From Thiotrichaceae bacterium UBA973 (lineage in GTDB: Bacteria > Pseudomonadota > Gammaproteobacteria > Eutrophobiales > Eutrophobiaceae), in NCBI GenBank assembly GCA_002292815.1, contig DBBX01000018.1:61209-125208 (forward strand): 64,000 nucleotides of DNA, in the 5' to 3' direction. The translations under genes and the position numbers were made by a program. Positions within the stretch are counted from its first letter, which is position 1. Each line of letters starts with the position of its first letter. Below, piece by piece: positions 1,290 through 61,944 of this stretch. The notes beneath the pieces were generated by a model, which saw nothing but the letters and a program-made list of their open reading frames with translations, made no database searches and was not told the DNA's origin.

Positions 1290-2306
1290 TTAAACGCCAG
1301 ATTCTTTCGTTGTTTTAACGATAGCTGCTGCGACCTTATAAGGATCTGCATTTGAAGCTGGGCGACGATCTTCCAAACGTCCTTTCCAACCATCTTCTAC
1401 AGTACCGATTGGAATACGAATTGAAGCGCCTCGATCAGATACACCATAGCTGAACTCATTGATAGATTGCGTTTCATGTTGACCTGTTAAACGTTGATCA
1501 TTTTCTGCGCCGTAGACACTGATGTGTCGTTGTACGTTTTTACCGAACTCATCACAGATTCTGGTAAATGTTTCCTGTTTGCCAGATTCACGCATAGCAT
1601 CATTTGAAAAGTTAGCGTGCATACCTGAACCATTCCAGTCGGTGTGACCTAGAGGCTTGGGATGCCATTCAATCGAGAGCCCATGTTTTTCAGCAGTACG
1701 TTCTAGTAGGTAACGACCAATCCAGGTTTCATCACCAGCACGTTTTGCGCTTTTTGCGAATACCTGGAATTCCCATTGACCTGCAGCAACTTCACCATTG
1801 ATGCCTTCAACATTGAGACCTGCTTCAAGACAGATATCAAGATGGTCCTCAACTATTTCTCTACCGTAAGCATTCATGGCACCTACTGAACAGTAATAGG
1901 GACCTTGGGGACGAGGGAAACCACCATGTGGAAAACCTGGAGGCAGATTAGATTCAGGATCCCAAAGAAAGTATTCCTGCTCAAAACCAAACCAGAAATC
2001 TTCGTCGTCATCTGCTTCGTCAATAGTTGCACGTCCGTTAGACTCATGTGGTGTTCCATCGGCATTTAATACTTCCGTCATTACCAGAAATGCATTCATG
2101 CGATCAGGATCAGGAAAAACAGCAACCGGTTTGAGCAGGCAATCTGAATCGTTGCCGTCAGCTTGTTCGGTAGAGCTGCCATCAAAAGACCACATTGGGG
2201 CATCTTCGACCTTACCACTAAAATCAGACTTAACTAGGGTTTTGCTTCTTAGACTTTGTGTTGGTCTGTATCCATCAAGCCATATATATTCCAACTTACT
2301 TTTCAT
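1290..2306 (-). CDS. glnII: glutamine synthetase type II (eukaryote-like GSII)
   Basis: About 340 aa with KLEYIWLDG N-terminus and GSII-like catalytic region (GMHANFS); likely start is the ATG at 2306 preceded by a GGAG RBS (the ORF-track start at 2318 is a GTG). Confidence 0.8.
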   Translation of the reverse strand: MKSKLEYIWLDGYRPTQSLRSKTLVKSDFSGKVEDAPMWSFDGSSTEQADGNDSDCLLKPVAVFPDPDRMNAFLVMTEVLNADGTPHESNGRATIDEADDDEDFWFGFEQEYFLWDPESNLPPGFPHGGFPRPQGPYYCSVGAMNAYGREIVEDHLDICLEAGLNVEGINGEVAAGQWEFQVFAKSAKRAGDETWIGRYLLERTAEKHGLSIEWHPKPLGHTDWNGSGMHANFSNDAMRESGKQETFTRICDEFGKNVQRHISVYGAENDQRLTGQHETQSINEFSYGVSDRGASIRIPIGTVEDGWKGRLEDRRPASNADPYKVAAAIVKTTKESGV

Positions 2307-2594
2307 GATGCGTTGCACTCCTCCAAATTATTTTTTCATTTTCAATCTAATGAAATTCTTAGAAAAGTAGAAGAGCAATATATGTTCCAGTCTTGTGCAT
2401 TTTGCCAAATAGACCAGTTATGAATAAAAAAATCGAAATACTATGATTTTTTATATATTAAAATCAATCATATAGTGAGATCAAAAGGAATTAATTAAAG
2501 CGGGATATAGTGTCTATTCGATTGTTATAGACTTGAACTTATAGCACGAAACGCACCAAAATAGAGCGGTAAATGGCTTTATCTGTTGTTTTCC

Positions 2595-2611
2595 GCGCTA
2601 TTATAGTGCAC
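2595..2611 (-). promoter_or_regulatory. palindromic operator-like motif GTGCACTATAATAGCGC (minus-strand reading) with embedded TATAAT
   Basis: Shares the 12-mer GCACTATAATAG with the site at 7021-7037; GCAC-N7-G(T/C)GC geometry resembles NtrC half-site spacing; lies between the Ser/Thr kinase stop and the glnII start. Confidence 0.35.
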
Positions 2612-2630: not shown

Positions 2631-3584
2631 TTAAGACCAATCTTCTTCAAGAAGCCGAACTAGTTCTGTGCAGCTCTGCATTCTTTTATCTACCGATTTA
2701 TCAATACATTTCATAGCTGTTGATTCAAGTAAGCGAGGCACATGGATGTTTGTTAGTGTCGATGGTTTTGGCGGTGATTCATCTAAAATTTTCATTTTTA
2801 CTTCATCGACTGTCTCGCCTTCCGCCGGAGCTTGCCCTGCCAAGATTTCATACAGGACTACTCCCAAGCTAAAAATATCTGTTCTGAAATCAATATTGGG
2901 ATCTCGCCTAATTTGCTCAGGTGACATATAGGTGATGGTACCTTGTAGTTTTTCAGAATCTGTTATCGACGATACTTTTTCGTTCGAGATTGATTTAGTT
3001 GTGTTTGGTTCTTCCTTGCTGCTGCCGTCCGGATTCCATACTTTTGCCAATCCCCAGTCCAGTAATAACACTTCACCAAAAGGGCCAACCAGAATATTTT
3101 CTGGTTTGATATCACGATGGATTACCCTGTGGCTGTGGGCGTAATCTAATGCATAGCCGATTTGGATGACGACGTTAATTAATTGCTTCAGATCATAACG
3201 TTCTCGATAATCCAGAATTTCACGCAAGGTATAACCATGGACGAGCTTCATGGTGAAGTAGTACTGACCTTTTGAATCTCTTCCAAGTTCATACATTGGA
3301 ACCGTGTTAGGGTGCTGTAGCAGAGCACTTACTCGTGCTTCTCGCAAAAAACGCTGTTGTTCTATCGGGTCATTTGCGATCTCGGGGCGGAGTTTCTTGT
3401 AGCAGATTGTTCGTGATAGATGTAAATCTTTACAGGACTGAACAATGGCCTTTCCACCACGAGCAATAGTTTTAAAATAGGCATAGCGCATATTTTGGTC
3501 AAGTTTGAGTGGTAGTTCTTTGTCAGTATTTTCAAGATAGACAATGGCGTACTCATCACTTGGTGGTTCTGGAAAAGAGGTCAT
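2631..3584 (-). CDS. eukaryotic-like (Hanks-type) Ser/Thr protein kinase, kinase domain only
   Basis: VIHRDIKPENILV catalytic loop, DWGLAK (DFG-equivalent), SPE motif, Lys in ...KAIV... subdomain II; long activation-segment insert. Confidence 0.8.
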   Translation of the reverse strand: MTSFPEPPSDEYAIVYLENTDKELPLKLDQNMRYAYFKTIARGGKAIVQSCKDLHLSRTICYKKLRPEIANDPIEQQRFLREARVSALLQHPNTVPMYELGRDSKGQYYFTMKLVHGYTLREILDYRERYDLKQLINVVIQIGYALDYAHSHRVIHRDIKPENILVGPFGEVLLLDWGLAKVWNPDGSSKEEPNTTKSISNEKVSSITDSEKLQGTITYMSPEQIRRDPNIDFRTDIFSLGVVLYEILAGQAPAEGETVDEVKMKILDESPPKPSTLTNIHVPRLLESTAMKCIDKSVDKRMQSCTELVRLLEEDWS

Positions 3585-4028
3585 GTATTTGTGTTCATGT
3601 TAATCAATTTGGTCTCGTCAATTGCTGTTTACCAAACTTAATATTACCTGTGTCGTCTGTAATATTGAACGAATTTAAAATATTTATACGATATAAGCTC
3701 ACATATTGGCTCAGATCAATCACAATGGAAATAGTAGGGCACAGGCTACCAAAATGAAAGCACTGAGCTGCCAACTCATGCAACTCTTATGAGGGAACTC
3801 TAGTGCTTATTTTATAGTGCGGTTATACTCAATGGTCTGGAACAAATGCTCAAATAATAATAAATACCAAGCTGGAATGATTTTCATATTGAGCGAATAG
3901 AGAATTTGATTGAAATGCAGTGGCTAGAGCGATCTTGAGCAGGGGTCATGCACAGCTGATACATGATTTTATCTTATTACAACTAAACAATATAAAATTG
4001 ACTGAATAGTCAGTCTCAGGAGATAACG

Positions 4029-5435
4029 ATGTCGGATAATGTAATGAAATTAATAAAGGAAAACGATGTAAAATTTGTCGACATGCGTTTCTGTGATACC
4101 ACCGGTAAGGAACAGCACGTCACCATACCTGCCAGTACAGTTGATGCTGATTTTTTTGAAGAAGGCAAAATGTTTGATGGTTCTTCTATTGGTGGCTGGA
4201 AAGGTATAAATGAATCAGACATGGTCCTGATGCCAGAATGTGATACTGCAGTAATTGACCCTTTCTTTGATGATACTACTTTGATCATCCGTTGTGATGT
4301 TCTTGAGCCGGCAACAATGGAAGGCTATGGGCGCGATCCGCGTTCATTAGCAAAGCGTGCAGAAGCTTATTTGAAATCAACAGGTATTGCAGATACTGCT
4401 TACTTTGGTCCAGAACCGGAATTCTTTATCTTCGATGAAGTTCGTTGGGGTGATGAAATACATTCCGCATTCTATGAAGTTGATTCAGATGAGGGTTGCT
4501 GGAATAGTGATCGACTCGGCGAAGACGCTAATATAGGTCATCGTCCTGGTGTAAAGGGAGGTTATTTTCCTGTTCCGCCAGTGGATTCTGGCCAGAATAT
4601 TCGCTCAGCTATGTGTACGGTGCTTGAAGAAATGGGTGTAGGTGTAGAAGTACACCACCATGAAGTTGCAACAGCAGCACAAGCCGAAATTGGTACTGTG
4701 TTTAAAACATTGACCAGAAAAGCAGATGAAATATTGATCCTTAAGTATGTCGTGCAAAACGTCGCACACAGCTACGGTAAAACAGCGACGTTTATGCCGA
4801 AACCATTGGTTGGTGATAATGGTAGTGGTATGCATGTCCATCAGTCTTTGGCAAAGAATGGAGAGAACCTGTTTGCCGGTGATAAATATGGCGGTCTTTC
4901 GGATATGGCGTTACATTATATTGGTGGTATTTTCAAACATGCCCGTGCGCTCAATGCGTTTACCAATGCTAGTACAAACAGTTATAAACGATTAGTTAAA
5001 GGTTTTGAAGCGCCAACCATGTTGGCCTATTCAGCACGTAACCGTTCTGCCTCTTGTCGTATCCCTTGGGTCTCAAGCCCTAAGGCACGCCGCATCGAAA
5101 TGCGTTTTCCGGATTCATGCGGTAACCCTTATTTCACTTTCGCTTCATTGATGATGGCCGGCCTTGATGGTATCCAAAACAAGATTGATCCAGGCGAAGC
5201 ATTTGAAAAAGATTTATATGACCTGAGTATTGAAGAAGAAAAAGATATTCCAACCGTTTGTTCTTCTTTAGATCAAGCGTTAGAAGCACTCGATAAAGAT
5301 CGTGAATTCCTGACGGTTGGCGGCGTATTTACCGATGATATGATTGACGGATACATTGCCTTGAAGATGGAAGAGGTCACCCGTTTTCTTAGCACCACCC
5401 ACCCGGTTGAATTCGACATGTATTACAGTTTGTAA
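4029..5435 (+). CDS. glnA: glutamine synthetase type I
   Basis: 468 aa, canonical GSI N-terminus ([21 protein letters not shown]) and catalytic motifs ([10 protein letters not shown]); CAGGAG RBS upstream. Confidence 0.95.
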
Positions 5436-5639: not shown

Positions 5640-6182
5640 ATGAAGATTAAATTTTTATTATTTATAAGCCTGATATTTATTCCGGCTGTTTATGCAGAGA
5701 CCGTCTATAAGACGGTGGATGCTGAGGGAAACGCCGTTTTTTCTGATGCCCCATCAGCTGGAGCCGAAGAGATAAAAGTCAAAGAGGCTCAAACAATTAA
5801 TCCCCCGAAAGCGAGATCATTTAAACTTTCGCCACCGGAAGATAATTCAAAGAAATTTAATTATACCAAGCTTGTAATAATTAACCCTGAAAACGAATCG
5901 ACGATTCATGGTGGAGAGGGCAACGTAAATATTACAGTCACACTAGAACCGGAGCTCACTGAAATGGATGTGATGGTGTTATACCTGGATGGAAAGGAAA
6001 TGCTAAGCGGAAAGGCACCGCAATTTTTATTGACGAATGTTGATCGAGGCACACATAGCATCTCGGTAGCGGTAAAAAATAAACTCGATAAAGAACTAAA
6101 ACGCTCCGCTAAAGTGACATTTCATGTTCGCAGAACATCCATCCTCAATTCAAATAAGCCATCGCTTCGGAGCACTAATTAG
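5640..6182 (+). CDS. DUF4124 domain periplasmic protein
   Basis: Signal peptide then ETVYKTVDAEGNAVFSD motif typical of DUF4124; position between glnA and ntrB, as in Pseudomonas-type gene order. Confidence 0.7.
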   Translation: MKIKFLLFISLIFIPAVYAETVYKTVDAEGNAVFSDAPSAGAEEIKVKEAQTINPPKARSFKLSPPEDNSKKFNYTKLVIINPENESTIHGGEGNVNITVTLEPELTEMDVMVLYLDGKEMLSGKAPQFLLTNVDRGTHSISVAVKNKLDKELKRSAKVTFHVRRTSILNSNKPSLRSTN

Positions 6183-6269: not shown

Positions 6270-6788
6270 ATGCGTCTAATCATTAGCTTAATCTTACTAG
6301 CCAATATGGGCTCTGTCGTTGCAGAGACTGTTTATAAAACAGTGGATGAAAATGGTAATATTATCTTTACTGATAAGCCCTCCAAAAATGCTGAAGAGAT
6401 AAAACTTCAGAAATTACAAACGATTAAAAATCCTAATCCGGCTAAGCATACGCCCAGCCCAAAGCAGGCTAAAGATAAAGGGCCGATATATAAAAAGTTT
6501 TTGATCGCTAATCCAGAAAATGAATCAGGGCTTAGAAGCAATAATGGTGATGTCACTATCTCAGTAACGCTTGAGCCGCCTTTACGTGGAGGCCATCGAA
6601 TCATAATAACTTTGGATGGTGAGGAAGTGTCAAATGGTCCTGTGACTAGTGTTTCATTACAAGATGTTGATAGAGGAACACATAGCATCAGTGCCAGTGT
6701 GGTCGATGGGAAAGCCAAAAATATGATTTCAACAAGTAGTAATTTTACATTATTACGGCAGCCCGCCCCTAGAAAGACCCCGAGATAA
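6270..6788 (+). CDS. DUF4124 domain periplasmic protein (tandem paralog)
   Basis: ETVYKTVDENGNIIFTD plus conserved NPENES...VDRGTHSIS block shared with the upstream paralog. Confidence 0.7.
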   Translation: MRLIISLILLANMGSVVAETVYKTVDENGNIIFTDKPSKNAEEIKLQKLQTIKNPNPAKHTPSPKQAKDKGPIYKKFLIANPENESGLRSNNGDVTISVTLEPPLRGGHRIIITLDGEEVSNGPVTSVSLQDVDRGTHSISASVVDGKAKNMISTSSNFTLLRQPAPRKTPR

Positions 6789-7020
6789 GAAATTAACCTC
6801 AACAAGTAGAAGTTTTTCATTCTTGCGCACGTTGGAATAACGTTCTAATACCGTCTTTTTTAAACTCCTGCGTTTTCTTTTGTCCACGTGAGATATAGAT
6901 GGTCTGCTTCTTGCTCTAATCATTGTCATATTCAAACAGTTTTTTTTATTTTTCTAAGTAATTGTTTTTATTATATTAAATATAAAAAATAATTTAACCG
7001 AAATATTAATATGTGAAGGA

Positions 7021-7037
7021 CGCACTATAATAGTGCA
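7021..7037 (+). promoter_or_regulatory. perfect palindrome CGCACTATAATAGTGCA (GCAC-N7-GTGC) with embedded TATAAT, 16 bp upstream of the ntrB start
   Basis: Inverted GCAC/GTGC half-sites with the same spacing as the enteric NtrC site (TGCACCA-N3-TGGTGCA); TATAAT at 7026-7031 fits a sigma70 -10 box occluded by the operator. Confidence 0.4.
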
Positions 7038-7052
7038 ATAATAAATATATCT

Positions 7053-8120
7053 ATGGAGACTTCAGCACAAACAGCCCTACGTACAGTTGAAAATTTAGCA
7101 ACAGCTGTGTTGCTATTCGATAAGGACCTGCACCTGATTTCAATAAATAGTGCGGGTGAAACTTTGTTATCGGTTAGCCATAAGCGTGTTTCTGGTATGC
7201 AGCCCAACCAAATTTGGCCAAATTCATCATTTTTCTATGAAGCCATACAGCGTTCTTTGTATTCAGGAACAACTTGTATAGAACGTGGGATAGACCTGAA
7301 TCTGAATAACGGCCATCAGATAAAAGTAGATTGCATGATTACACCGGTTGTTGTGGATCATGCTGCTGAAGAGATTCTGCTCGAATTAGTTGATGCCCAT
7401 GGTTTTGTCAGGGTAATGCAAGAAGTGAGTCAAGAGACTGTACAAGCAGCAGCAAAAGAATCGGTGCAGGGTATGGCGCATGAAATTAAAAATCCCTTAG
7501 GTGGGATTCGTGGAGCAGCGCAACTACTCGAAAGGGAACTTGACGATAAAGACCTGCTTGAATACACCGGTATCATTATTAATGAGTGTGATCGTTTAAG
7601 AAAATTTATTGACCGTATGTTAACTACCAGTACACATCCGGTTAAATTAGACCTCAATATTCACGAGGTGTTGGAATATGTCGTTTCAGTAGTACATGCC
7701 GAAAACGCACATAAGGTGAATATCAAGAGAGATTATGATCCCAGTATTCCGAATATAAAAGCTGACCGCGAACAGATCATTCAGGTAATTTTAAATCTAT
7801 TGCGTAACGCAGTTCAGGAAATTGACAAAGATGGTCACATCACTCTAGTTACACGTATTCAACGTCAGGTGACAATCCAGCATAAATTGAATCGGCACAT
7901 AATTGTAATCGATATTATTGATGATGGTCCTGGTATACCACCAGAGATTGAGTCTGGCGCTTTTTATCCTTTGGTAACGGGTCGTGCTGAGGGAACCGGA
8001 CTTGGTTTATCAATTGCCCAACAACTTATTCAATCTCATGGTGGTTTAATAAATTATGAACGCAAAGACAATAACACCTATTTCAGTATCTTACTCCCAA
8101 CGGAGCAATGCGATGAGTAA
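7053..8120 (+). CDS. ntrB: nitrogen regulation sensor histidine kinase NtrB
   Basis: PAS-like N-terminus, H-box HEIKNPLGGIRGAAQLL, HATPase C-terminus (G-boxes GTGLGL); 4-bp overlap with ntrC. Confidence 0.9.
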   Translation: METSAQTALRTVENLATAVLLFDKDLHLISINSAGETLLSVSHKRVSGMQPNQIWPNSSFFYEAIQRSLYSGTTCIERGIDLNLNNGHQIKVDCMITPVVVDHAAEEILLELVDAHGFVRVMQEVSQETVQAAAKESVQGMAHEIKNPLGGIRGAAQLLERELDDKDLLEYTGIIINECDRLRKFIDRMLTTSTHPVKLDLNIHEVLEYVVSVVHAENAHKVNIKRDYDPSIPNIKADREQIIQVILNLLRNAVQEIDKDGHITLVTRIQRQVTIQHKLNRHIIVIDIIDDGPGIPPEIESGAFYPLVTGRAEGTGLGLSIAQQLIQSHGGLINYERKDNNTYFSILLPTEQCDE

Positions 8121-9516
8121 ACAAAAGAAAGTGTGGATAGTCGATGATGATAAATCAATTCGTTGGGTGTTAGAGAAAGCGCTAGAAAAAACGGATGTAG
8201 AGATCCAAAGTTTTTCCAATCCTGATGATGTCTTAAAAAAGATCCGTAACGAAGAACCGGATGTCATCATCTCTGATATTCGTATGCCGGGTATGGATGG
8301 GATAACTCTATTAGAGAAGATTAAGGAGCAGTCTCCAGGCGTTCCGGTAATAATAATGACAGCATACTCTGATCTCGATAGGGCTGTTTCTGCTTTTCAG
8401 GGTGGGGCATTTGAATATCTGTCAAAACCATTTGATGTCGACGAAGTCGTTAGTCTGGTCAAACGTGCTATTACACATAAGCAGAGTAATAATGATGCTC
8501 CTGTGGATGAAATAATCGATGCGAGTACATCGATCATTGGCTCAGCGCCGGCTATGCAGGAAGTCTTTAAAGCGATAGGCCGACTATCAAGTTCAAACCT
8601 GACAGTATTAATTACTGGTGAAACTGGCACGGGTAAAGAGTTGGTAGCCAGTGCCTTGCATGCGCATAGCCCCAGATCGACGCAACCCTTCGTTGCTATT
8701 AATACTGCCGCGATACCAAAAGATTTGTTGGAGTCTGAATTATTTGGTCATGAAAAAGGTGCCTTTACTGGCGCAACGGGGCAAAGGCAAGGACGCTTTG
8801 AACAAGCTAATGGTGGCACACTTTTTCTTGATGAGATTGGAGATATGCCCGCTGACTTGCAAACACGTTTACTTCGTATCCTTGCCCAAGGAGAGTTTTA
8901 TCGTGTTGGTGGGCATACACCGATTAAAGTTGATGTGCGCGTTATTGCAGCAACACATCAAGACTTGGAACAACTCGTCAAGGAAAATAAGTTTCGAGAA
9001 GATTTATTACATCGATTAAATGTTATTAGAGTTCATGTTCCGTCATTGAGAGATAGACGAACAGATATTCTTGAACTTACTAATCACTTTTTGAAGAGCG
9101 CGGCTAATGAATTAAGTGAAGAGACCAAAAGTTTATTGCCTGAGACGGCTGATTATCTTGCCGGATTACCATGGCACGGGAACGTGCGGCAGCTTGAAAA
9201 TTTTTGCCGTTGGATAACGGTAATGGCATCGGGTAGTGAGATTCATATCGATGATCTACCGCCAGAATTAAAACAGGAAACTGAGACGACAGAAGTATCG
9301 GGTGAATGGGAAACTACTTTTCGAAAATGGGTTGAGTCCAGTTTATTAAAAGGTGATACAGAAATTTTACGTGATGCTGTACCACGATTTGAATCAATCT
9401 TGATTAAAGAAGCGCTGAAAAAAACGAGTGGTCGTCGTCAGGATGCCGCGAAATTATTAGGTTGGGGGCGAAACACTTTGACGAGGAAGATAAAACAACT
9501 AGAGCTTGATGTTTAA
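8113..9516 (+). CDS. ntrC: sigma54-dependent nitrogen regulation response regulator NtrC
   Basis: Receiver domain (VWIVDDD...SDIRMPGMDG), AAA+ sigma54-activator domain (GETGTGKE, GAFTGA), C-terminal HTH; start at 8113 (MSKQKK) rather than the ORF-track 8056. Confidence 0.9.
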   Translation: MSKQKKVWIVDDDKSIRWVLEKALEKTDVEIQSFSNPDDVLKKIRNEEPDVIISDIRMPGMDGITLLEKIKEQSPGVPVIIMTAYSDLDRAVSAFQGGAFEYLSKPFDVDEVVSLVKRAITHKQSNNDAPVDEIIDASTSIIGSAPAMQEVFKAIGRLSSSNLTVLITGETGTGKELVASALHAHSPRSTQPFVAINTAAIPKDLLESELFGHEKGAFTGATGQRQGRFEQANGGTLFLDEIGDMPADLQTRLLRILAQGEFYRVGGHTPIKVDVRVIAATHQDLEQLVKENKFREDLLHRLNVIRVHVPSLRDRRTDILELTNHFLKSAANELSEETKSLLPETADYLAGLPWHGNVRQLENFCRWITVMASGSEIHIDDLPPELKQETETTEVSGEWETTFRKWVESSLLKGDTEILRDAVPRFESILIKEALKKTSGRRQDAAKLLGWGRNTLTRKIKQLELDV

Positions 9517-60181: not shown

Positions 60182-61219
60182 ATGATCAAGGTTGGTGTTG
60201 TCGGCGCAACGGGTTATACAGGAATCGAATTACTTCGATTATTATCAAAGCATGATGCCGTTGAGTTAGTAGTTGCCACTTCAAACGCTGAAAAAGGCAA
60301 GGCTGTTCGGGATGTCTTTCCAAGCTTGCGAATGCATGTGGATCTTGAATTTGTTGGTCATGATAGTGAACTCCTGAAGTCATGTGATTTTATTTTCTTT
60401 GCAACACCCCATGCAACAGCAATGTACCATGTACCCAAACTACTTGAGCAAGGTTGTAAGATTATAGACCTTTCTGCAGATTTTAGGATTTCAAATCCAA
60501 CGTTATGGGAGCAATGGTATCAGGTAAGTCATGCGTGTCCAGAACTGCTAAACCAAGCAGTATATGGATTACCAGAATTAAATAGACAAAAAATAAAGGA
60601 CGCCAATCTGATAGCCAATCCAGGATGTTATCCAACTGCAATTACGCTTGCGTTATTGCCCGCAGTTGAAAAGGGATTAATCAACATGGGCGATATTATT
60701 GCCGACGCTAAATCGGGTGTAAGTGGTGCTGGGAGGAAAGCGGCACTAGCAACTCAATTTTCTGAGGTTTCAGAATCTTTCAAGGCATATAGTGTTTCAG
60801 GGCACAGACACTTGCCTGAAATTATGCAAACGCTAAACAATGTTCAGACAGAGTCTGAAGCTAATTTGACCTTCGTGCCTCATTTGGTCCCAATGAACAG
60901 AGGCATTTTTGCCACACTGTATGTGAAGCCAATTGAAAATGCGGAGGGGTTGCATGAGCACTATGCCGCCTATTATGCACAGGAAAAGTTTGTTGATGTG
61001 ATGCCGCAAGGTTCGCACCCAAATACTGCGTCGGTCAGAGCAACAAACTCATGCAGGATTGCTCTTCACCCCGGTAAAAATCAGTCTCAACCTACGGTAA
61101 TCCTGTCGGTAATTGATAACTTAGTGAAAGGTGCTGCCGGTCAGGCGATTCAGAACATGAATATTATGCTGGGTTTGGATGAAAGTTTGGGCTTGGCTAT
61201 GCCCGGTCTGATTCCCTAG
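60182..61219 (+). CDS. argC: N-acetyl-gamma-glutamyl-phosphate reductase
   Basis: 345 aa; VGVVGATGYTG NAD-binding motif; catalytic Cys in GCYPT. Confidence 0.95.
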   Translation: MIKVGVVGATGYTGIELLRLLSKHDAVELVVATSNAEKGKAVRDVFPSLRMHVDLEFVGHDSELLKSCDFIFFATPHATAMYHVPKLLEQGCKIIDLSADFRISNPTLWEQWYQVSHACPELLNQAVYGLPELNRQKIKDANLIANPGCYPTAITLALLPAVEKGLINMGDIIADAKSGVSGAGRKAALATQFSEVSESFKAYSVSGHRHLPEIMQTLNNVQTESEANLTFVPHLVPMNRGIFATLYVKPIENAEGLHEHYAAYYAQEKFVDVMPQGSHPNTASVRATNSCRIALHPGKNQSQPTVILSVIDNLVKGAAGQAIQNMNIMLGLDESLGLAMPGLIP

Positions 61220-61230
61220 TCAGTTTTATT

Positions 61231-61944
61231 ATGCCTAAACTAGTTGTAAAAAAGCACCGTCCGTTTGAAATTGTTTTTGCTGTCATACTGTTCAGTGGTG
61301 CGATTTCTGTCGTGATATGGTTTCTATTAGATGCGAATCATTGGCGTTCTATTAAAAGCCAGCTAATACAGAGTGAAGACTCTCGTTTACTTTGGGAGGT
61401 AAATCAAAGTCTCGATATTGAGAATAAGCAGTTGCGAGAACAGGTCGTCATACTTGAACGTTCCACTCAAATTGATAATCAGGCTGCTGCCAGATTGCAA
61501 GATGATATTAAGGCACTTCAGGATCAGGTATACAGTCTCAAGGGTGAATTAGAGTTTTATCAAGGGATTATGTCGGCAACAACAGACTCAAAGGGACTTA
61601 ATATACAGGGACTTCATATTGAAGCGACTAGACAAGAAAGTTTGTACCATTTCAAGCTTGTGTTAACCAATGTCGCAAAAAGTGATAAAATTATCGAAGT
61701 TACAATGGAGATGTCAATTGAAGGGATGAATGAAGCGGGATCCCAGGTATTATCACTAGATAAGGTGATTGCAGGCAGTAAACTTGATCGTGAAATAAAA
61801 TTTAAGAACTTTGAACGAATTGAGGGTAATCTAAACTTCCCTAAGGGCTTCAAGCCATTGCGGGTGGTGGTTGGTTTGCGACAAAAAGGTTCGCAGAAAT
61901 CAACGGTAAAAAGAGTATTTGAATGGCCTGCTAAAGCAGGTTGA
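61231..61944 (+). CDS. hypothetical membrane-anchored coiled-coil protein (DUF6776-like)
   Basis: N-terminal TM helix, central coiled coil; conserved position between argC and bactofilin. Confidence 0.6.
   Translation: MPKLVVKKHRPFEIVFAVILFSGAISVVIWFLLDANHWRSIKSQLIQSEDSRLLWEVNQSLDIENKQLREQVVILERSTQIDNQAAARLQDDIKALQDQVYSLKGELEFYQGIMSATTDSKGLNIQGLHIEATRQESLYHFKLVLTNVAKSDKIIEVTMEMSIEGMNEAGSQVLSLDKVIAGSKLDREIKFKNFERIEGNLNFPKGFKPLRVVVGLRQKGSQKSTVKRVFEWPAKAG

Follow-up and report, generated by a model that had tools for sequence, protein, structure and literature searches.

Predicted NtrC sites upstream of glnII and ntrB, and a modestly unusual candidate promoter architecture at ntrB, in an uncultured lineage of Gammaproteobacteria

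The stretch of DNA analysed here, 64 kb in length and referred to throughout as the window (G+C content 41%), carries glnII, a Ser/Thr protein kinase gene, glnA, two DUF4124 genes, ntrB, ntrC and hemB, a gene neighbourhood that is as the preliminary description of the sequence had it (Table 1). The likely start of glnII is the ATG at 2306-2304, which follows a GGAGGA. The listed ntrC ORF overlaps ntrB by 65 nt from its start at 8056. As it aligns with E. coli NtrC and with many relatives only from residues 20-26 onwards, translation probably starts at the ATG at 8113, leaving an overlap of 8 nt with the ntrB stop. Related loci were collected by scanning the NtrC protein against one genome per species, which yielded 80 loci, all of them from uncultured Gammaproteobacteria and with protein identities of at most 93%. 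In the closest 14 loci the gene order is glnII (minus strand), kinase gene (minus strand), glnA where present, DUF4124 genes, ntrB, ntrC and hemB (minus strand).

Some further features of these loci may be recorded at this point. The gene for glutamine synthetase glnA is missing from the locus in L004-L006, L008, L009, L011-L013 and L023, where the kinase-glnII pair abuts the DUF4124 genes, and in Pseudohongiella-like loci a plus-strand glnII replaces glnA upstream of ntrB. The Ser/Thr kinase is a protein of 317 aa made up of the kinase domain only, and in the whole clade (window and 13 loci) its gene is the immediate upstream neighbour of glnII and has the same orientation, an arrangement which hints that the kinase may be functionally linked to glutamine synthetase II. 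The products of the two DUF4124 genes between glnA and ntrB are paralogous and secreted; past the stop codon of the second gene, at ~6795-6840, lies a degenerate duplicate of its 3' end, which in a different frame reads TSTSRSFSFLRTLE up to a stop.

Table 1. Genes and predicted regulatory features of the window. Positions are counted from the first letter of the window; PWM, weight matrix built from the ntrB sites of related loci.
Feature	Position	Strand	Basis
glnII, glutamine synthetase type II	1290-2306	-	NF041605, E 4e-118; 394 bits, below the curated cut-off of 500
Predicted sigma-54 type promoter of glnII, TGGAACATATATTGCT	2374-2389	-	TGGAA.A.ATATTGC invariant in 13 loci
Predicted proximal NtrC-type site of glnII enhancer, plus strand GCACCAAAATAGAGC	2553-2567	-	PWM 15.9 bits, conservation
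Predicted distal NtrC-type site of glnII enhancer, GCACTATAATAGCGC	2595-2609	-	PWM 15.9 bits, conservation in 13 loci
Ser/Thr protein kinase gene	2631-3584	-	Kinase-domain matches; adjoins glnII in 13 loci
glnA	4029-5435		
Two DUF4124 genes	5640-6182, 6270-6788		
Predicted sigma-54 type -24/-12 promoter of ntrB, TGGTCTGCTTCTTGCT	6900-6915	+	Invariant block in clade alignment
IHF-like site, minus strand AAACAATTACTTA	6955-6967	-	1 mismatch to WATCAANNNNTTR
Predicted NtrC-type palindrome before ntrB, solitary, perfect	7022-7036	palindromic, not applicable	Conservation, PWM 26.9 bits
AATAAT hexamer abutting the palindrome	7037-7042	+	0.6-1.2 bits per position over 45 loci
ntrB (glnL), sensor kinase NR(II)	7053-8120	+	NF008293, 314 bits, above the curated cut-off
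ntrC (glnG), NR(I)	8056-9516	+	TIGR01818, 725 bits
hemB	after ntrC	-	

The preliminary description had drawn attention to a 12-mer that occurs at two places, once before ntrB and once between the kinase gene and glnII, and both copies are present in the sequence. The ntrB copy is the plus-strand 15-mer GCACTATAATAGTGC at 7022-7036, a perfect 7+1+7 palindrome with arms (GCACTAT/ATAGTGC) that are complementary around a central A. Perfect symmetry had originally been claimed for 7021-7037; it holds for 7022-7036 but not for the outer pair, C...A, which is non-complementary. On the plus strand this region reads acGCACTATAATAGTGCaataataaatatatctATG. The 16 nt (7037-7052) that separate the palindrome from the ATG at 7053 agree with the distance given originally, and the palindrome centre lies at about -23/-24 from the ATG. 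The glnII copy, at 2595-2609, reads GCGCTATTATAGTGC on the plus strand, that is GCACTATAATAGCGC on the minus strand. It begins 21 nt past the stop of the kinase ORF, and glnII is located ~290 nt downstream of it.

With up to one mismatch allowed, the 12-mer has three matches in the 64 kb, namely the two exact copies and the other strand of the ntrB palindrome, against 0.34 matches in shuffled sequences, none of the 100 shuffles reaching three. The loose pattern GCAC-N7-GTGC with one mismatch shows no enrichment in the window (10 observed, 16 expected). Since the central bases differ between the two loci in relatives, the identity of the 12-mer in both copies is, on the evidence of these comparisons, a coincidence and an accident of this genome.

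Could the two copies themselves be chance matches in AT-rich DNA (41% GC), or form an RNA hairpin or terminator? The position of the glnII copy, 21 nt after a stop codon, and the ability of the ntrB copy to form a 6-bp hairpin would be in keeping with this. We nevertheless consider such an origin very improbable, as the 12-mer is over-represented, the site is kept in ~45 species, and the arms of the ntrB palindrome are invariant rather than covarying: a left-arm position that varies between T and C faces an A in the right arm throughout, and an uncompensated change of this kind argues for recognition of the DNA by a protein and not for an RNA stem. A hairpin or terminator was rejected, the candidate structures being no more stable than those of shuffled sequences (z = +0.55 and -1.6) and having no T-run after them, and the 64-kb window as a whole gave no match at the gathering score of any Rfam family.

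We suggest that both copies are very probably binding sites of the dimeric nitrogen regulator NtrC, whose gene lies 1 kb past the ntrB copy. For comparison, E. coli sites were read directly from a complete E. coli chromosome, and the half-site spacing of GCAC-N7-GTGC matches theirs, as the preliminary description had proposed. The E. coli glnL operator reads TATAAT, GCACTAAAATGGTGC and AAC in succession, with 19 nt between AAC and the ATG (22 nt between core and ATG), while the glnAp2 enhancer sites read GCACCAATATGGTGC and GCACTATATTGGTGC. In the relatives L003, L006 and L009 the ntrB site, GCACTAAAATAGTGC, has 14 of the 15 bases of the E. coli glnL operator. When set against the enteric-type box TGCACC-N5-GGTGCA, with its core GCAC-N7-GTGC, 7022-7036 is perfect, and 2595-2609 and 2553-2567 have one core mismatch each. 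The NtrC of the window is 61% identical to that of E. coli, contains GAFTGA and matches the NtrC family model TIGR01818 with 725 bits; its helix-turn-helix (LLGWGRNTLTRK) does not differ from the E. coli one, and this includes the recognition helix, GWGRNTLTRK.

Further to that, the ntrB sites of the relatives alone were used to build a weight matrix, which ranked 7020-7038 first in the window (26.9 bits), followed by 2551-2569 and 2593-2611 (15.9 bits each), and scored 10 bits or more at four places, compared with 0.5 in shuffled sequences. The matrix independently recovers paired sites before glnII and glnA. Across 1.44 Mb, comprising the window and the 80 related loci (81 orthologous regions), 166 matches scored 12 bits or more, and 154 of these fall into the 450 bp before ntrB (71), glnA (51) or glnII (32), with 12 matches elsewhere; the 71 at ntrB are partly circular, ntrB sites being the source of the matrix, whereas the 83 at glnA and glnII are independent. 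The fourth match in the window, at 61013-61031 (TCGCACCCAAATACTGCGT, 14.3 bits), is located within the 3' end of argC (60182-61219), 209 nt before an ORF with no NCBIfam match (61231-61944), and may be due to chance.

Both ntrB and ntrC are among the core members of the NtrC regulons predicted for 19 proteobacterial taxa (PMC5343134). This membership, together with the distribution of the matrix matches, identifies the motif as a general proteobacterial NtrC box, and the relatives' form of it is 1 base away from the E. coli glnL operator. The earlier suggestion of an operator specific to this lineage therefore has to be given up, while the underlying idea of an NtrC-type operator at nitrogen-regulated genes is supported by sequence, position and motif distribution.

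The right half-site is always TAGTGC as against the enteric TGGTGC, which leaves some room for a regulator other than NtrC, e.g. another Fis-type enhancer-binding protein or a LysR/Nac-like factor, as the protein that binds the palindrome. We regard this as improbable: the core and its spacing are identical to those of experimentally defined E. coli NtrC sites, the NtrC recognition helix does not differ from that of E. coli, and hardly any of the sites lie away from ntrB, glnA and glnII, with pairs of them upstream of -24/-12 promoters.

Alignment of the kinase-glnII spacer from 13 loci revealed three conserved blocks: the distal site (GCAC.A...T.G.GC), a second, proximal site 42 bp away (GCACTAT..T.GTGC), and TGGAA.A.ATATTGC. 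The last of these, at 2389-2374 in the window, shows the -24 GG / -12 GC spacing of sigma-54 promoters. Relative to the predicted glnII start at ~2363, the centres of the NtrC-type sites are at ~ -197 (proximal) and ~ -239 (distal). The two sites of the pair are 41-42 bp apart, and those of L012 and L013 30-32 bp, corresponding to four and three helical turns. The glnII copy of the 12-mer is an NtrC-type site, as the preliminary description had it, but that description missed the two-site enhancer, placed before a -24/-12 promoter, of which the copy would be a part. Two adjacent sites upstream of the promoter are present at glnII, where the canonical definition of an enhancer asks for at least two. 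An IHF-like motif is seen there as a partial match only.

A two-site enhancer combined with a -24/-12 promoter points to activation rather than repression, and the layout at glnII, as predicted from the alignments, is that of a textbook NtrC-activated gene. We infer that glnII is activated from the two-site enhancer. Phosphorylated NtrC (NtrC~P) would assemble on the site pair (2595-2609 and 2553-2567), loop to the -24/-12 promoter ~200-240 bp downstream and activate it under nitrogen limitation. This is similar to rhizobia, in which glnII is NtrC-activated (PMC10746234). As in glnAp2 and the rhizobial glnII enhancers, the two dyads are separated by whole helical turns (42 bp) and lie upstream of the -24/-12 element; unlike in those enhancers, each glnII site of the window has one half-site mismatch. 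The enhancer is also further from its promoter (~ -197 and -239) than that of E. coli glnAp2, whose sites are at -108 and -140, and the host is here an uncultured gammaproteobacterium whose glnII has a Ser/Thr kinase gene as its partner.

The region upstream of glnA in the window (3585-4028) contains neither NtrC sites nor a -24/-12 promoter, and the NtrC pair and the -24/-12 element are likewise absent in L001-L003. In distant relatives (compare L007 and L014-L027) glnA is preceded by two NtrC sites, an IHF-like site and TGGCAT-N5-TTGC, the IHF-like motif lying between the NtrC pair and the promoter; the gap between enhancer and promoter is the usual place for IHF sites. Direct NtrC control in this subclade appears, from these comparisons, to rest on glnII and not on glnA. 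A different palindrome, TGACTGAATAGTCA, is located at 3999-4012, right before the glnA Shine-Dalgarno sequence. It is kept in L001-L003 and largely in L007, and could be a hairpin of the 5'-UTR or a site for another regulator.

Upstream of ntrB, a perfect GCAC-N7-GTGC dyad is found in ~45 loci, down to 47% NtrB identity, with its centre at -18 to -33 and mostly at -23. The commonest form is GCAC(T/C)AAAA(T/C)AGTGC followed by AATAAT. The site is solitary, most loci having no further match that reaches 2 bits within ±120 bp. It had been supposed that a TATAAT embedded in the palindrome would be occluded by a bound dimer. This proved to be unsupported, as relatives mostly have TAAAAC, TAAAAT or CAAAAT in its place, and no plus-strand sigma-70 promoter using the embedded TATAAT was called in a promoter scan. 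The AATAAT hexamer that abuts the palindrome is fixed 9-10 nt before the ATG, most loci having no Shine-Dalgarno sequence, and is a possible -10 element of a near-leaderless sigma-70 promoter. No -35 element is conserved with it over the 45 loci and the promoter scan did not call it in the window; a -35-like GTGAAn is present at 18 bp from it in the close clade only.

The stretch at 6995-7021, upstream of the palindrome, is itself a clade-specific conserved block (AAGGATTAATACGTGAA, in L001-L018), which resembles a Shine-Dalgarno sequence plus GTG and might alternatively be the -35-like GTGAAn. Extension of the ntrB ORF from this AAGGA...GTG was considered; the extension is in frame in L001 and L002 and meets a stop in the window, L003, L006 and L009, and was therefore rejected as non-coding.

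The spacer between the DUF4124 genes and ntrB contains three conserved blocks, i.e. a -24/-12 element, an IHF-like block, and the palindrome with its flanks. The first of them would place a sigma-54 start at ~6926. This promoter was found in 41 of the 42 palindrome loci (40 by pattern, and L039 as CGGCAC-N5-TTGCT), at -146 to -176 and once at -127. The sole exception is L034, in which the palindrome and AATAAT come right after the glnA terminator, as in E. coli, and the sigma-54 promoter is absent; its keeping of the palindrome indicates a role that does not depend on sigma-54. The second block, TAAsTnATTGTTTTTATT at 6955-6972, resembles in its reverse complement the IHF consensus WATCAANNNNTTR. 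A site with at most one mismatch to this consensus was present in 25 of the 42 loci, always 68-71 bp from the palindrome centre. The exact IHF consensus has no match at 6955-6967 and no enrichment in the window, and the -24/-12 pattern by itself is not enriched in the window either; the -24/-12 elements of ntrB and glnII and the IHF-like site are therefore called from their conservation only.

Measured from the -12 C, the palindrome centre is 115 bp away in the window, 109 bp in the closest relatives and most often 118-120 bp; the majority of values are between 115 and 122 bp, with outliers at 109, 129 and 89 bp. Strict helical phasing of promoter and palindrome was considered as well and, given the spread of 89-129 bp, can be called suggestive only. 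Relative to the predicted start at 6926, the palindrome centre is at ~ +103 and the IHF-like site at ~ +35, a placement that the preliminary description had missed as well. With one site, ~103 bp downstream of the start, ntrB does not have the two or more upstream sites of a canonical upstream activating sequence (UAS).

Two groups of loci have NtrC-like sites in other positions. In L046, L057 and L063, a second and weaker NtrC-like site (12-14 bits) lies ~ -155 from the ntrB ATG, on the predicted sigma-54 start, in what looks like a governor-type arrangement. In the Pseudohongiella-type distant loci (L058-L080) an NtrC site precedes a TTGGTTTAYTTATTGCAT promoter by 70-100 bp, and in some of them there is also a weak site at -11.

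Overall, the best explanation of these observations, and one that we hold to be probable, is that NtrC sites act at glnII as an enhancer and at ntrB in autoregulation. At ntrB, the single, perfect palindrome is predicted to be a high-affinity autoregulatory NtrC site. It would nucleate NtrC~P, which would then activate the sigma-54 promoter from downstream via an IHF-assisted loop (positive autoregulation). Furthermore, an NtrC dimer lying against AATAAT, at 16 nt from the start codon, would silence a weak constitutive promoter or lessen read-through, a negative autoregulation of the kind seen at E. coli glnLp.

If the protein is indeed NtrC, we lean slightly towards an enhancer or dual role for the ntrB site, and the reading that we prefer is that of a downstream enhancer which may also act as an operator. 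Supporting an enhancer is the fact that no other NtrC-like site of conserved position was found within ~300 bp of the ntrB sigma-54 promoter, that an IHF-like site downstream of this promoter is only sensible with a downstream activator, and that a sigma-54 promoter of the ntrB type never occurs without the palindrome. The case is weakened by the single dimer site, which makes a poor enhancer, glnII and the relatives' glnA always having two sites; by the E. coli glnL operator, which is repressive and is also a single site; and by the distance between promoter and palindrome, which is not strictly in helical phase.

Again granting that NtrC is the regulator, a purely repressive role of the ntrB site seems doubtful to us, and as an explanation of the whole we think it rather unlikely that the site is nothing but a glnLp-type operator, as the preliminary description had it, or a governor or roadblock, with the sigma-54 promoter being activated in some other way. 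NtrC bound 16 nt before the ATG would in that case block a sigma-70 promoter or the elongating polymerase. Such a role agrees with the presence of a single, very strong site in a position equivalent to that of the E. coli glnL operator, to which it is identical at 14 of 15 bases in several relatives, with the fixed distance to the ATG, and with the conserved adjacent AATAAT, a possible near-leaderless -10. Moreover, L034 retains the site in the absence of any sigma-54 promoter, and the extra site over the sigma-54 start in L046, L057 and L063 suggests repression. That ntrBC can be under negative autoregulation is on record for E. coli as well as for rhizobia (PMC3870243, PMC10746234). Repression also carries weight because of a report on Methylomonas (PMC12799797), in which the region before ntrBC is bound by NtrC but positive autoregulation is not seen. 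Against pure repression, the embedded TATAAT is not conserved and a conserved -35 is absent; it would leave an invariant sigma-54 promoter with no activator site within ~300 bp, and would not explain an IHF-like site located downstream of that promoter at a fixed distance of 69 bp from the palindrome.

We return to the downstream enhancer doubling as an operator, which can be put forward only tentatively as an arrangement common to the clade: an ntrBC sigma-54 promoter whose sole enhancer would be a single-dimer site ~100 bp past the start and right before the ATG, assisted by an IHF bend, with the same site serving as the operator of a near-leaderless constitutive promoter.

Parts of this arrangement have counterparts in known systems. 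The operator-promoter of E. coli glnL (ntrB), glnLp, was reportedly described by Ueno-Nishio et al. in 1984 (cited in PMC4066584). The window shares with it a single NtrC dyad immediately upstream of ntrB (glnLp, GCACTAAAATGGTGCAA; clade, GCACTAAAAYAGTGCAA; window, GCACTATAATAGTGCAA), and a regulator NtrC with an identical recognition helix. In E. coli, glnLp is repressed by NtrC (PMC3870243). The two differ in that the TATAAT -10 of glnLp is on the 5' side of the site, while the -10-like hexamer of the window clade is on the 3' side; that glnLp has a leader of ~30 nt with a Shine-Dalgarno sequence, while the window site is 16 nt from the ATG with no Shine-Dalgarno sequence; and that glnLp has no sigma-54 promoter of its own, while the window clade has a predicted one, together with an IHF-like site, upstream.

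At PntrBC of P. fluorescens, a sigma-54 site is accompanied by a strong and a weak footprinted NtrC site, and autoactivation as well as autorepression via the second site was proposed by the authors (PMC8034625). The window resembles it in having ntrBC with its own predicted sigma-54 promoter and NtrC sites, and the distant loci L058-L080 match the PntrBC layout. In contrast, the window clade has no upstream site: its only site, a strong one, is downstream of the promoter, with the IHF-like site between the two.

Activation from downstream is not without precedent. Relocated NtrC sites were reportedly shown by Reitzer and Magasanik in 1986 to act from downstream of sigma-54 promoters, and the ftr elements for FlbD in Caulobacter are enhancers located downstream of sigma-54 promoters. 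The ntrB region would share with such downstream enhancers an activator site ~100 bp past the start and an IHF bend between site and promoter. These enhancers were demonstrated experimentally, whereas the arrangement in the window is predicted from conservation only and would consist of a single dimer site.

We conclude that the motif is known biology in an uncultured lineage, set in an architecture that is modestly unusual. Distant, uncultured, AT-rich Gammaproteobacteria have kept the enteric NtrC box, especially the operator next to ntrB, nearly base for base, and the NtrC regulons of such metagenome-assembled genomes are therefore predictable with a standard motif. The notable part is the order of predicted sigma-54 promoter, IHF-like site, single NtrC site and ATG, which is kept in ~40 species. 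If our preferred reading is true, one palindrome would provide positive as well as negative autoregulation, in a mirror image of the glnAp1/glnAp2 logic of E. coli. Should the site activate from downstream, it would be a natural downstream NtrC enhancer that joins positive and negative feedback, a case which would bear on how two-component systems set their own levels.
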